This document shows, piece by piece, positions 1 through 3,553 of a stretch of 12,422 nt of DNA. Each line of letters starts with the position of its first letter. Positions within the stretch are counted from its first letter, which is position 1. Made by a program: the position numbers and the translations under genes. The stretch is from Coleofasciculus sp. B1-GNL1-01. GTDB taxonomy: Bacteria; Cyanobacteriota; Cyanobacteriia; Cyanobacteriales; Coleofasciculaceae. A model generated the notes under the pieces. The model saw nothing but the letters and a program-made list of their open reading frames with translations, was not told where the DNA came from and searched no databases. Where the stretch lies: the NCBI GenBank assembly GCA_040220235.1, contig JAVJTO010000129.1; one strand, written 5' to 3'.

Positions 1-1
1 T

Positions 2-421
2 CACGGTGCAACGGTAGAAAACACCTTGTTTGAAGACGGTGAAGGGTCAAACACCTTCCGGGCGTTTAACCCCACCCAAGCCGAAGAAACCTATTCGATG
101 GTGACGGCGAACCGCTTTTGGTCTCAGATTTTCGGGATTGCGTTTTCCAATAAGCGCTGGCTGCACTTCTTCATGCTGTTTGTCCCAGTGACGGGCTTGT
201 GGATGAGTTCAGTGGGTGTGATTGGCTTAGCGGTGAACCTGCGGGCGTATGACTTCGTGTCCCAGGAAATCCGGGCAGCAGAAGACCCCGAATTTGAGAC
301 ATTCTACACCAAGAACATTCTGCTCAACGAAGGAGTCCGAGCTTGGCTGGCGCCTCAAGACCAACCCCACCAGAAGTTTGAATTCCCTGAGGAAGTTCTA
401 CCTCGCGGTAACGCACTCTAA
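2..421 (+). CDS. psbD: Photosystem II D2 protein, 3' part (5'-truncated by window edge); stand-alone psbD2-type copy
   Basis: Frame is open from nt 2 ([13 protein letters not shown]...) and reads [21 protein letters not shown]...[12 protein letters not shown], the D2 C-terminus. It is followed by a terminator, not by an overlapping psbC. Confidence 0.99.
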
Positions 422-449
422 TAAGTTGGGTTTAGTCATCAACTTTGCT

Positions 450-476
450 CCCCTGCCTTCGGGTAGGGGTTTTTTT
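450..476 (+). terminator. Intrinsic terminator of psbD
   Basis: Stem CCCCTGCC/GGTAGGGG (one G-U) closing a C(UUCG)G tetraloop, followed by T7. Confidence 0.9.
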
Positions 477-588
477 CTGTTCATCGTTGATGGTTGACAA
501 CTCAAAACTTGAATGGGGCGGGTTTAAATAGTCGGTCAAGAGAAAACGACACGCTCACGCTTGTTTTATAACCCAGACTCAAACCTAT

Positions 589-645
589 ACAAAGGACGTA
601 GCTTGCTTTTCGCTTGCGCGAGAATGACAAATGACGAATGACGAA
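589..645 (+). repeat. Small dispersed repeat (GACGTAGCTTGCTT-N9-GCGAG) embedded in an AATGAC(A/G) heptamer run, copy 1
   Basis: Shares ACAAAGGAC, GACGTAGCTTGCTT, GCGAG and the ATGAC heptamers with 4179-4266. The heptamer is the reverse complement of the STRR2-type TT(G/T)GTCA. Confidence 0.75.
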
Positions 646-664
646 AAACTTTCCTGGCTTCCCC

Positions 665-692
665 TTGCCAAATCTAAATGGTGTGTTATTCT
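665..692 (+). promoter_or_regulatory. Putative sigma70-type promoter for the 699-999 locus
   Basis: TTGCCA (665-670), 16-nt spacer, extended -10 TG-n-TATTCT (684-692). TSS predicted at about 698-700. Confidence 0.6.
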
Positions 693-763
693 AATTAAAG
701 GTGAATAAACACCAGATAACTAACGGATTAAAAAACCGTACAGGGATTAAGGAGGTGATGCCC

Positions 764-835
764 ATGAGCGATAGTAGTAAAAGCATGGGTCATCTGATTG
801 GAGTTAGCCGGCTGTGTGCCGGGGCTGTTCTCTAA
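764..835 (+). CDS. Putative 23-aa small peptide MSDSSKSMGHLIGVSRLCAGAVL
   Basis: ATG 764 lies 8 nt after the GGAGG core of AAGGAGGTGAT (749-759); TAA at 833-835. Too short for the ORF track. Translation is not proven. Confidence 0.5.
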   Translation: MSDSSKSMGHLIGVSRLCAGAVL

Positions 836-935
836 CAGTTGGCTCAGTTCTCTTCGGAGAACTCATAGATTGAGAAACTGGGCTGGTTAAGGAGTTCCTT
901 CCGGCAGTCTGGTTTCAATCAGAAGACCCGCTAGA

Positions 936-999
936 CCGCTCTCACTATAAGTACTAAAGATTTTATCTAGGTACTTCCCGTGAGAGCGGATAGTTTTTT
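936..999 (+). terminator. Long terminator-like hairpin upstream of the dehydratase gene
   Basis: CCGCTCTCAC/GTGAGAGCGG (10 bp perfect) + AAGTAC/GTACTT + AGAT/ATCT, then ATAG-T6. Confidence 0.7.
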
Positions 1000-1038
1000 G
1001 GGGATTTTTTTAATAAAGTTGAAGGTGGGAGAAAAAAT

Positions 1039-1323
1039 ATGGCTGAGTTACTCAGTGACGCAGAAATTCAAGAAAAAGTCAAGTCATTAGAAGGCTGGAC
1101 GGTTGAAGGGAAAGAGTTACACACAACTCGCCAATTCAAAGATTTTGTCGAAGCGATCGCCTTTGTCAATAAGATTGTTGAACCAGCAGAAGCGGCTGGA
1201 CATCATCCTGATTTAGGGATTTCGTATAACAAGGTGACGATTAGTCTCACCACCCATGATGCTGGGGGTTTGACAGCGAATGACTTTGAGATGGCTCAAA
1301 CGCTGTCCAAGTTAAGCGCATAG
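1039..1323 (+). CDS. phhB: Pterin-4-alpha-carbinolamine dehydratase (PCD)
   Basis: 94 aa; catalytic motif EAAGHHPD, plus YNKV and LTTHDAGGLTANDF; GGGAG SD upstream. Confidence 0.95.
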   Translation: MAELLSDAEIQEKVKSLEGWTVEGKELHTTRQFKDFVEAIAFVNKIVEPAEAAGHHPDLGISYNKVTISLTTHDAGGLTANDFEMAQTLSKLSA

Positions 1324-1380
1324 CTGTAAAACGCGGATATGGCAAGGGCTTAAGTACCAGTTTTAAAACATTGACATCTA

Positions 1381-1410
1381 GGACTGCTTGTGTAATACAA
1401 GCAGCCATTT
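1381..1410 (+). terminator. Inverted repeat: possible phhB terminator or a protein-binding site in the porin promoter
   Basis: CTGCTTGT (1384-1391)/ACAAGCAG (1397-1404) with a short ATTTT tail; TTGACA at 1371-1376 is directly upstream. Confidence 0.4.
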
Positions 1411-1564
1411 TAGATATATAATTGGCAATATTAGCCAAAAGCTTACTTGACTGGCAGATGAACAAGGGTTCCAAAATGAATCTGAAAATTAAGCGAAAAA
1501 ATACCATCTGCCAATAGACGATGTACCATAGTGCGAGAAGGGCAATCAAATTCTTTCTGTAAAG

Positions 1565-1573
1565 GTGTGAGGA
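1565..1573 (+). promoter_or_regulatory. Ribosome-binding region complementary to the Yfr1 sRNA seed
   Basis: GTGTGAGGA, 6 nt before the porin ATG, is complementary to 9 nt of the conserved Yfr1 motif ACUCCUCACAC. Confidence 0.65.
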
Positions 1574-1579
1574 CAGAAG

Positions 1580-3553
1580 ATGTCGAAATTACTGTGGAAG
1601 TCTCTACTTATTAGCCCAGCGGTATTAGGTGTAACCTTAGTTGCATCTACGGTGGGAGTACGTGCAGCCGATAGCGCCAATCTGCCTATCGCTGACACTC
1701 AAACAGCAACGCCAGAAGTTCAGTTCGATGGTGTTGCTGATATTACGGTTTCAGAGGAAATTGCGGTTAATCCGGAACAGTTAACTCCAGCCAGTCTAGA
1801 GGTGAAGCCAGAGGTACAACCGACCTTGGCTCAAACTGTACCTGCTGCGCCCAATGACGCTGAGATTTTAAATCAAATCAATGACTACAGCAACGAAGGA
1901 ACCTCTAGTGGACAAGTGACCAGTGTGGGTCAGTTACGCGATGTTTCTCCAGGAGACTGGGCGTATGAAGCGCTACGTAGCCTAGTCGAACGTTACGGCT
2001 GTATCGCTGGGTATCCGGATGGTACATATCGTGGCAATCGGGCGCTAACTCGTTACGAATTTGCTGCTGGTTTGAATGCTTGTTTGAATCAAATTGAGCG
2101 TTTAATCGGAACAGGCGGTTTTGATGAAACTGAGTTAGAAACCCTGCGGCGGTTGATTCAGGAATTTGAAGCGGAACTGGCGACGCTAGGGGCGCGAGTT
2201 GATAACCTAGAAGGTCGTGTGGCGTTCCTGGAAGATAATCAGTTCTCCACGACGACCAAGTTACGGGGTGAAGTCATCTTTGCGCTCACCGATACCTTCG
2301 GCGGCGAGGACAACTCTTTTGATATAGATGGTGTAGATTTGGCTGATCCCGAAGTTCAAGAATTTTTTGAAGAAATCTTGGGAACAGATGTAGAGTTTGA
2401 CGATGATACAAACACCATCTTTGGTCACAGGGTTCGTCTAGAACTCAATACTAGCTTCACTGGTCAAGATCGTTTAGTAACTCGTCTGGCGGCTGGCAAC
2501 CTGAATGCTTTTACGCCTAACAGTCCTAGTTTCAGTCTAGTCGATGAAGACCTTGATCTAGATGTGCCATTGGGTACATTGGGTACGGGCGAAGCCTTCC
2601 AAACGTTCAATATTGGAAACACTGATAACGATGTCATCATAGACTGGTTAGCTTATTACTTCCCCTTTGGCAGCTCAAAAGTTTATGTTGCTGCAACTGG
2701 AGGAATTCACAGCGACTACGCCCCTACACTCAATCCCTACTTTGAGGATTTTGACGGTGGTAATGGTGCCCTTTCTAGCTTTGCCTCGGAAAATCCCATT
2801 TATCGGATTGGTGGTGGTGCAGGCGCAGCACTTAGCCTTGGTGTCGGTCCTCTAGAAAGGGTTCTGGGTCCAAGTACATTGACTCTAGGTTACTTAGCTG
2901 GTCCAGGAGCAGAGAATCCAGGTGAGGATTTTGGCATATTCAACGGCGAATACGCAGCCCTCGCCCAGTTGAATTTCAATATTGGTGACCGAATTGGTAT
3001 CGGTGCTACCTACGTCCACGGTTACCACAATGCTGGCAGTGACATATTTGATATCGGTGGAGGGGATGGAGGTTCTGTTGTGGGAACCTATTTAGCCAAT
3101 AATCCCAGTGAAGTGGCTACCCTCCTTAATGCTGACCTGCCAGTGACTCCAACAGTAACTAATTCTTACGGCATCGAAGCGGCGTTCCGCCTGACGGAAA
3201 AAATATCCATTAGCGGCTATGGCACTTACACAGATGCAATCCTGATTGGTCAGGGTGGAGCTGAAATCTGGACTTACGGAGCTGGCGTAGCTTTCTCAGA
3301 CTTAGGTAAGGAAGGTAACATTTTGGGAATATTTGGAGGAGCACAACCTTATCTAGGAAATACTAATACTCCAGGTGAAGATTTCCAAATTGACGGTACT
3401 GATGATGTTCCGTGGCATATAGAGGCATTCTACAAGTATCAGCTCACGGATAATATCTCCGTTACTCCGGGTGTGATCTGGCTACTGAATCCTAACCAGG
3501 CTGATGCAGATGATGCTGTAGTCGGTACACTCAGAACTACTTTCACGTTCTAA
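1580..3553 (+). CDS. Cyanobacterial outer-membrane porin (SLH domain + OprB-type beta-barrel; Som/'iron uptake porin' family)
   Basis: Signal peptide; SLH motif DVSPGDWAYEALRSLVERYGCIAGYPDGTYRGNRALTRYEFAAGLNACL; coiled coil; FSTTTKLRGEV; C-terminal GTLRTTFTF. Confidence 0.96.
   Translation: MSKLLWKSLLISPAVLGVTLVASTVGVRAADSANLPIADTQTATPEVQFDGVADITVSEEIAVNPEQLTPASLEVKPEVQPTLAQTVPAAPNDAEILNQINDYSNEGTSSGQVTSVGQLRDVSPGDWAYEALRSLVERYGCIAGYPDGTYRGNRALTRYEFAAGLNACLNQIERLIGTGGFDETELETLRRLIQEFEAELATLGARVDNLEGRVAFLEDNQFSTTTKLRGEVIFALTDTFGGEDNSFDIDGVDLADPEVQEFFEEILGTDVEFDDDTNTIFGHRVRLELNTSFTGQDRLVTRLAAGNLNAFTPNSPSFSLVDEDLDLDVPLGTLGTGEAFQTFNIGNTDNDVIIDWLAYYFPFGSSKVYVAATGGIHSDYAPTLNPYFEDFDGGNGALSSFASENPIYRIGGGAGAALSLGVGPLERVLGPSTLTLGYLAGPGAENPGEDFGIFNGEYAALAQLNFNIGDRIGIGATYVHGYHNAGSDIFDIGGGDGGSVVGTYLANNPSEVATLLNADLPVTPTVTNSYGIEAAFRLTEKISISGYGTYTDAILIGQGGAEIWTYGAGVAFSDLGKEGNILGIFGGAQPYLGNTNTPGEDFQIDGTDDVPWHIEAFYKYQLTDNISVTPGVIWLLNPNQADADDAVVGTLRTTFTF

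Follow-up and report, generated by a model that had tools for sequence, protein, structure and literature searches.

The spacer between psbD and phhB in Coleofasciculus sp. B1-GNL1-01 raises the question of whether it specifies a functional RNA and, if so, what that RNA does. The window, that is, the whole stretch of DNA analysed, comprises 12 422 nt of contig JAVJTO010000129.1 (assembly GCA_040220235.1). An earlier note, made from the letters of this stretch, had described at 665–999 an unannotated, fully structured transcription unit and had proposed a stable sRNA or dual-function RNA, perhaps one already catalogued. The proposal is borne out by the single copy of the element, by compensatory changes in its stems, by a transcript at a homologous locus (L065) and by a match to the cyanobacterial RNA Ncl0160/Sye_sRNA1. 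The feature is thus real and is not novel, being an already catalogued RNA of cyanobacteria. What is new here is a supported fold, a wider range, the ranking of its Shine–Dalgarno (SD) sequence and a gradient link to the small ribosomal subunit.

Organization of the locus

The features of the region are collected in Table 1. A BLASTN comparison across cyanobacteria with attention to phhB synteny, as the earlier note had suggested, recovered homologues; at the 30 closest loci a psbD-like match and phhB are each found 27 times, and the SLH/OprB porin gene 28 times. The same arrangement occurs at L054, with psbD upstream and phhB and the porin gene downstream. A cobB-like gene lies upstream of the RNA at L047 and L065, and the downstream gene is different or convergent at L065 and L209. 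The conserved motif ahead of the SD, 20–28 nt 5′ of the AUG, is a possible protein site or tiny hairpin.

Table 1. Positions of the RNA gene, its parts and its neighbours in the window
Feature	Position	Strand	Basis
psbD (D2) 3′ end, upstream neighbour	2–421	+	ORF, Pfam Photo_RC
psbD terminator	450–477		Terminator scan
Promoter: −35 TTGCCA 665–670, 16-nt spacer, extended −10 TGnTATTCT 684–692 (TG 684–685, TATTCT 687–692)	665–692	+	Homologue upstream regions
RNA gene, orthologue of Ncl0160/TU475/Sye_sRNA1, ~300 nt	699–999	+	Homologues, published loci, L065 reads
Conserved CCGNNNAGG motif ahead of SD	736–744	+	118 of 175 distinct upstream sequences
11-nt SD, complementary to 16S 3′ tail	749–759	+	Conservation, computed duplex
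Hairpin H1, covers SD tail and AUG; predicted, nascent RNA only	753–795	+	
sORF, 23 codons, MSDSSKSMGHLIGVSRLCAGAVL	764–835	+	Frame and stop kept, residues not
Rod 5′ arm (codons 8–23)	787–832	+	Covariation; 4-nt bulge 815–818 contains codon 18
Variable domain, includes cUUCGg hairpin 846–863	836–891	+	47 lengths
Rod 3′ arm	892–929	+	Double changes in 23 of 31 rod pairs (787–832 : 892–929)
Terminal hairpin with U tract (3 bp, then GA/A internal loop, then long stem)	931–999	+	Covariation
phhB (pterin-4a-carbinolamine dehydratase), downstream neighbour	1039–1323	+	Pfam Pterin_4a, E 1e-32
SLH/OprB porin gene, 3′ of phhB	1580–3553	+	Pfam

Promoter and transcript

The promoter elements reported earlier are present as placed. 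A match to the promoter consensus is by itself at chance level (two found, 2.4 expected). The extended −10 element is recurrent among homologues: of 182 distinct upstream regions, 149 have a TGnTAnnnT box 25–110 nt 5′ of the ORF, and 10 have one when the opposite strand is searched. Transcription in this organism would begin at about position 699; start sites of the RNA have been mapped in two model strains (PMC6091082, PMC4195498).

The discrete transcript that had been predicted was seen at the homologous locus L065 as a strand-specific peak when three raw RNA runs were mapped (a fourth run consisted of contigs, not reads). Depth is 300–940 over the RNA and 0–37 in the bins of the upstream gene (1189–1343). 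In runs X23 and X24 the opposite strand has a depth of 0–1 at L065:941–1095, compared with 400–940 on the RNA strand; in run X20 the opposite strand amounts to about 4%.

Identity with a catalogued RNA

The window RNA is almost certainly the free-standing, abundant, growth-linked transcript Ncl0160/Sye_sRNA1. In Synechococcus elongatus UTEX 2973, Sye_sRNA1 measures about 200 nt by Northern and, 16S rRNA aside, is the most abundant sRNA; it has 53 homologues, mostly 3′ of psbD or cobB, equals TU475 of Synechocystis 6803, and has psbD, dcoH and somB as neighbours, the porin gene somB possessing its own start site (PMC6091082). Reads of TU475, tagged ncl0160 in the supplement of PMC4195498, number 1.66 million in exponentially growing cells and drop to 162 thousand in stationary phase and to 76 thousand in darkness; a 3′ extension of 434 nt is attributable to read-through (PMC4195498). 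In Synechocystis 6803 the stretch where footprints of translation would be expected lies at about NC_000911 484,812–484,741 on the minus strand, and sll1501 overlaps the 5′ portion of the RNA. A survey in 2016, from which the lineage of marine Prochlorococcus/Synechococcus had been omitted, found 83 homologues among 89 genomes and an ORF of 23–25 aa behind a ribosome-binding site (RBS), with all three stop codons in use (PMC4734099).

The window RNA shares with Ncl0160/Sye_sRNA1 the position after psbD or cobB, sequence homology, the RBS and 23–25-codon ORF, the use of three stops and the spacing of the start site. By BLAST the window query matched genome G216 with E 5e-23 and G107 with E 1e-7, and model R1, which had L054 in its training set, matched G107 with 5e-18. 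At L054 the residue 337 nt before the phhB GTG is a G placed 7 nt behind TAGAAT, in agreement with the published start site, and at L065 the TU475 start lies 48 nt 5′ of the AUG, behind a −35/−10 pair (102-nt offset from the end of the neighbouring gene). As these two loci agree with the literature in gene order and in the distances to the start sites, the RNA and its ORF were already known. The window RNA differs in length, about 300 nt, from the species on the published Northern (PMC6091082), because its leader is longer and it carries a variable domain.

The description of the element as unannotated and unnamed holds for Rfam and for this genome, but not for the literature, where it is published as Ncl0160/TU475/Sye_sRNA1; this match removes the novelty and leaves the feature. 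Rfam 15 gave no family match (best E 1.5 over window positions 1–2000; none at E≤1 in five loci), six deep loci gave a single, unrelated match outside the RNA (E 0.11), and ARAGORN found no tRNA or tmRNA gene in the window. No function for Ncl0160/Sye_sRNA1 was found in the literature searched, most subscription journals lying outside the search, and the accessible text of PMC6091082, PMC4734099 and PMC4195498 contains no mention of 30S association or of pairing between the ORF and a 3′ arm. The RNA may figure among the predicted structures of a 202-genome structure screen (PMC12873609).

Two further cyanobacterial RNAs, close to this one in size and either conserved or abundant, were rejected as identities. 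PmgR1 (Ncr0700) is a separate entry and, unlike Ncl0160, lacks a heavy gradient peak; Yfr6, which has a 33-codon ORF, is a glutamine-aptamer leader.

Distribution and copy number

BLAST detected the RNA in 52 of 61 related genomes, counting the organism's own genome (G000), which holds one full copy. A phylum sample without G000 had it in 76 of 85 same-class genomes, and none of the 115 genomes from other classes had it. A more distant search, with a model of the 5′ 110 nt built on sequence and not structure, found matches in 123 (E≤0.1) and 116 (E≤0.001) of 141 class-wide genomes. This wider range is new here: the homologues in these 116 genomes extend to deep branches and to a small-genome family excluded in 2016. 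The weakest matches of this search are genuine, since families f59, f61, f64, f65 and f36 all carry the SD, ORF, rod and terminal hairpin. We take f36 to be the picocyanobacterial family and f59 the deepest branch. A query made from f36 found 64 of 81 f36 genomes at E≤0.05 (61 at E≤0.001), the misses being mostly genomes of 1.6–1.9 Mb, and a psbD match adjoins the RNA in 15 of the 27 f36 loci scored.

An exact-pattern scan of GTDB genomes returned at least 119 loci, the 80 listed belonging to cyanobacteria or uncultured bacteria. No match was obtained in phage, plasmid and viral contig collections. In the class-wide model search most f38 genomes and some fragmented assemblies gave no convincing match, and a strict SD–ORF pattern had no match in five f36/f38 genomes lacking a model match. 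Weak matches within ordinary genes (L195, L226) were dropped, and L002, an SD-only match in the organism's own genome, was excluded from all counts.

Second copies of the RNA were observed in G274 (C112:9774–9877 and C329:411–511) and G328 (C1:2023818–2024006). Separately, G000 contains long SD sites before five near-identical gene starts (C11:42280, C16:20675, C53:1194, C110:12109 and C115:15543), one of which is the source of the weak match L002; these are presumably TnpB/IS605-type genes.

Shine–Dalgarno sequence and reading frame

The SD positions from −13 to −4, 10 in all, are each retained in 172 or more of 175 sequences. The computed duplex with the 16S tail has an energy of −20.5 kcal/mol, stronger than all 4562 of 4562 ORF starts in G000 (median −4.6), these starts having been crudely called and the 16S tail taken from a genome of the same family. 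In family f50 (L222, L224 and L227) the SD is shortened or lost, with the 23-codon ORF and the rod intact; this family offers a natural control for the idea of 30S binding. A further 11-nt complementarity, of 800–810 to a 16S segment near position 458, was rejected as chance, since it is equalled in 11 of 300 shuffles and falls short of 6 nt in 49 of 87 homologues.

The earlier note had counted about 165 nt of structure after the stop codon of the sORF, more than a simple mRNA needs, and this length is confirmed. The ORF has 23 codons in 178 of 189 loci (loci repeat genomes; 166 are distinct), the 11 exceptions comprising five early stops, all at the bulged codon 18 of the rod, two stop losses, three whole-codon insertions and one contig end. 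Stop usage among 154 distinct ORFs is TAA 78, TAG 75 and TGA 1. Outside codon 18, early stops are absent from 159 distinct ORFs, where independent column frequencies, which take no account of the tree, predict 12.2.

The peptide itself varies. Its pairwise dN/dS is 0.69, a value confounded by RNA pairing, and the conserved sites use single codons (codon 5 AGT in 152, codon 9 GGT in 151 and codon 17 CTG in 149 of 154). A compensated +1/−1 internal frame shift is found at L060/L061. Deep-branch peptides range from 15 to 26 aa and are unlike one another; that of f36 has 17 aa in all 27 loci scored. The sORF peptide has no Pfam match and is polar, with no hydrophobic run of membrane length on inspection. 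New here is the pattern that these alignments indicate, in which the SD, open frame, stop and AUG-to-stem distance are kept while the peptide varies.

In all 159 distinct homologues the −1 frame runs into a stop no more than 17 nt from the AUG (TAG TAG TAA at 772–780 in the window), and at L065 this frame forms the end of the upstream cobB-like gene. The −1 stop may merely reflect a conserved AGUAGUA loop.

Conserved fold

The region 690–1000 folds with z −4.8 on the plus strand and −4.7 on the minus strand, values so nearly equal that folding energy alone cannot choose the strand; the adjoining spacers have z −0.18 (422–698) and −2.2 (1324–1579). Covariation was assessed in 60 homologues of less than 88% identity, from 92 available, among which kin are not independent. 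RNAalifold returned a rod, in which codons 8–23 pair with the 3′ arm, plus the terminal hairpin. In a 44-pair model 95.2% of cells pair and 30 pairs have double changes; double-changed cells number 225, as against 64 after shuffling (none of 500 shuffles reaches the observed value) and 28–63 in slid controls. The compensatory changes that the earlier note had asked for are therefore present, in the rod and the terminal hairpin.

In 180 of 189 loci the first position of the rod is +24 relative to the AUG, and f36 shows the same distance. The terminal stem extends to 931–993, with 7 of 13 pairs double-changed and 99% pairing among the 60 homologues. The hairpin is canonical in 164 of 189 loci and is swapped for unrelated terminators in L043, L046, L048 and L059–L061; f59 and f36 have the same architecture with other closing pairs. 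The base of 3 bp, GA/A loop and stem, kept in the deepest branches (L209–L211, L229–L258) although its closing pairs differ, is more than a plain terminator needs.

An almost unbroken series of local hairpins had been described for the locus. All five fold in isolation, and the terminal one (936–989) covaries, but the conserved fold is the long-range rod between the ORF and the 3′ arm. Hairpin 753–795 is 88% paired among homologues, with one-sided changes only and none of its 10 pairs double-changed, and 806–826 is 94% paired in the 60 homologues. The three parts of the long stem 868–920 are only 45–69% paired. Hairpin 846–863 belongs to the domain after the stop, which takes 47 different lengths (0–131 nt, all frames) over 176 loci, and its cUUCGg loop is thus lineage-specific. 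The related claim, of a plus-strand RNA under structural selection, is upheld by covariation that tolerates G–U pairs.

In the window sequence the rod lies 5 kcal/mol above the minimum-energy fold, which contains the 868–920 stem, and among 81 homologues the core pair of the rod reaches P>0.5 in only 43; two folds may therefore coexist. Invariant bases that are unpaired or do not covary occur in the AGUAGUA loop, the rod core and the base of the terminal hairpin. Examined by eye, the sequences have no conserved antiterminator pairing the 3′ arm with the terminal hairpin.

Hairpin H1 and the rod are exclusive, as they compete for 787–791. In a set of 87 of the 92 homologues, from which five with other ORF lengths were left out, H1 is predicted with P>0.5 in 81 transcripts cut at codon 16 and in six at full length. 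The cost of opening the SD–AUG region falls from 11.5 kcal/mol in the cut form to 5.7 in the full-length form, and is lower in the latter in 85 of 87. The switch is absent in f36 (14 of 27; medians 9.2 and 9.6) and fails in L054 and L057. The conserved CC spacer is explained equally well by extra pairing to the 16S tail.

Co-sedimentation and fitness data

Published Grad-seq data (supplement of PMC8136920) place Ncl0160 in two peaks, at F7 and F16/17. Fractions F14–18 hold 32–41% of it, compared with 1.6–2.5% of psbA2, norf1, PmgR1 and tmRNA and 10% of ncl1600, these controls being chosen by hand. The rRNA rows of cluster 16, two in number, have their peak at F16/17, and the four of cluster 17 have theirs at F18; from the numbers of rows, cluster 16 would correspond to 16S rRNA. 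Over F9–F18 the Ncl0160 profile correlates with cluster-16 rRNA at r = 0.98 and with cluster-17 rRNA at 0.05–0.11, and a three-component fit assigns a weight of 0.45–0.58 to the cluster-16 profile. In a comparison covering 37 of about 4250 transcripts, namely Ncl0160 and 36 further non-rRNA rows, two of the latter reach 10% or more in F16/17: ssr3572, with a jagged profile, and ncl0150. With 33% there, ncl0150 follows the cluster-16 rRNA to a still greater degree than Ncl0160, resembling the 3′ extension of ncl0160 (30%), and is probably 3′ read-through of the ncl0160 transcription unit.

This co-sedimentation suggests that much of Ncl0160 travels with the small ribosomal subunit. The lysis buffer contained 1 mM Mg (PMC8136920), so SD:16S pairing could be a post-lysis event, and other mRNAs that carry an SD of this kind might sediment in the same way. 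The main text of PMC8136920 does not discuss ncl0160, which is also absent from the main text of a 2025/26 Synechocystis Ribo-seq preprint (10.64898/2025.12.20.695498). CRISPRi against ncl0160 caused no significant fitness change in any of 11 conditions (adjusted p 0.13–0.98), in a data set in which the depth of knock-down is not visible (PMC10615215).

Possible role of the RNA

We propose, at what we regard as an even chance of being right, that selection acts on engagement of the ribosome and not on the peptide, the RNA serving to buffer free 30S subunits or to gauge their number. The RNA would be made from the extended −10 promoter placed here. Its 3′ arm, once made, would zip onto codons 8–23 to form a rigid rod, as covariation indicates, leaving a single-stranded platform of SD, AUG and seven codons (a fixed 23 nt) with room just sufficient for the footprint of an initiation complex. 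The 11-nt SD would grip the 30S subunit unusually tightly, a step consistent with the computed duplex and the published co-sedimentation. An elongating ribosome would have to unwind the rod, freeing the 3′ arm for an alternative fold or decay, and the open frame with its stop would provide the ribosome's exit route. The RNA would in this way buffer, or gauge, free 30S subunits or initiation capacity. In most larger-genome lineages H1 is predicted to form first and probably bars ribosomes until the rod is complete.

Engagement of the ribosome is favoured by the near-invariant SD, the open frame, the freedom of the peptide, the fixed distance from AUG to rod, the covariation of the rod, the co-sedimentation, and the abundance of the RNA with its tie to growth. 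The shortening or loss of the SD in f50, the null CRISPRi result, the 1 mM Mg of the gradient, the absence of the switch from f36 and the position of the rod above minimum energy count against it. A broader version, which we advance as speculation and consider doubtful, is that this has been a housekeeping RNA since the root of the oxygenic cyanobacteria, in which a mock message parks unoccupied 30S subunits through their anti-SD tail. It would buffer initiation capacity, or shield the 16S 3′ end, where ordinary mRNAs pair weakly; the short frame would be a release route and unwinding of the rod would report ribosome activity.

The RNA could instead be an mRNA for a functional peptide of 17–24 aa, as proposed in PMC4734099, with the rod and terminal hairpin just stabilizing the message and metering its translation. 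Conservation of start, stop and frame, a dN/dS below 1, the recurrence of a Ser-rich start and of Gly9, and retention of the ORF where the SD decays (f50) all speak for this. It nevertheless seems unlikely, in that the conserved residues fall at RNA-paired sites with single codons (5, 9 and 17), the last six residues are lost repeatedly, an internal frame shift is tolerated, and the deep-branch peptides have little in common and no Pfam match.

We consider it rather improbable that the RNA is a base-pairing or protein-binding sRNA acting in trans, in which translation governs only how stable it is or uncovers a seed, such as the AGUAGUA loop or the 3′ arm. Such an sRNA would have its own promoter and terminator, as here, and might account for the invariant unpaired or non-covarying bases and for the half or so of the RNA that sediments away from ribosomes in peak F7 (PMC8136920); however, the conserved stretches are mostly locked within the rod, and the extreme SD is left unexplained.

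The leader-like anatomy of sORF, alternative folds and terminator, the position of phhB and the porin gene next to the RNA at most close loci and at L054, and the read-through represented by the TU475 extension would all suit a translation-coupled attenuator for these two genes. This is very improbable given the different or convergent downstream genes at L065 and L209, the separate start site of somB (PMC6091082), the replacement of the terminal hairpin at six loci and the failure to find a conserved antiterminator by eye.

A type I toxin mRNA with metastable SD-hiding hairpins, like aapA3 of Helicobacter pylori (PMC6733600), would share the strong SD, short ORF, predicted nascent hairpin and long-range 5′–3′ pairing, and is largely refuted by the polar peptide, the near absence of antisense reads at L065, the single copy with vertical synteny and no phage or plasmid match, and the very high constitutive abundance. 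A MITE or other DNA palindrome, suggested by the good folding of both strands and named in the earlier note as a possible refutation, is itself refuted by copy number, with no dispersed copies in G000 and one per genome in nearly all relatives, as well as by covariation tolerating G–U pairs and a discrete transcript.

Relation to known systems and significance

Several known systems resemble the window RNA in part. Like aapA3 it pairs its ORF with the 3′ region, and a hairpin sequestering the SD is predicted in its nascent form, but it has neither an antisense RNA (judged at L065) nor a hydrophobic toxin, and its full-length form is predicted to be the more open one (PMC6733600). Other parallels lie in better-known classes of RNA. 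Dual-function sRNAs such as SgrS/SgrT, and leader-peptide attenuators, carry an sORF in a small, structured, terminated transcript. The window RNA likewise has one, but its peptide is not conserved and no fixed operon follows. Ribosome-associated non-coding RNAs (rancRNAs) are a known class, and resemble it as small abundant RNAs co-sedimenting with a ribosomal subunit; here, by contrast, putative binding would occur through a canonical SD and ORF.

The RNA is reported to be among the most abundant non-ribosomal transcripts of several model cyanobacteria, is near-universal in the class, and has no Rfam entry. The strength of its SD, the platform, the covarying rod, the disposable peptide and an overlooked gradient profile give a specific, testable link to the small subunit. 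If the peptide is the product, this would be an ancient, overlooked small protein; if buffering of 30S subunits is correct, translation in photosynthetic bacteria would have a regulator of a new type.
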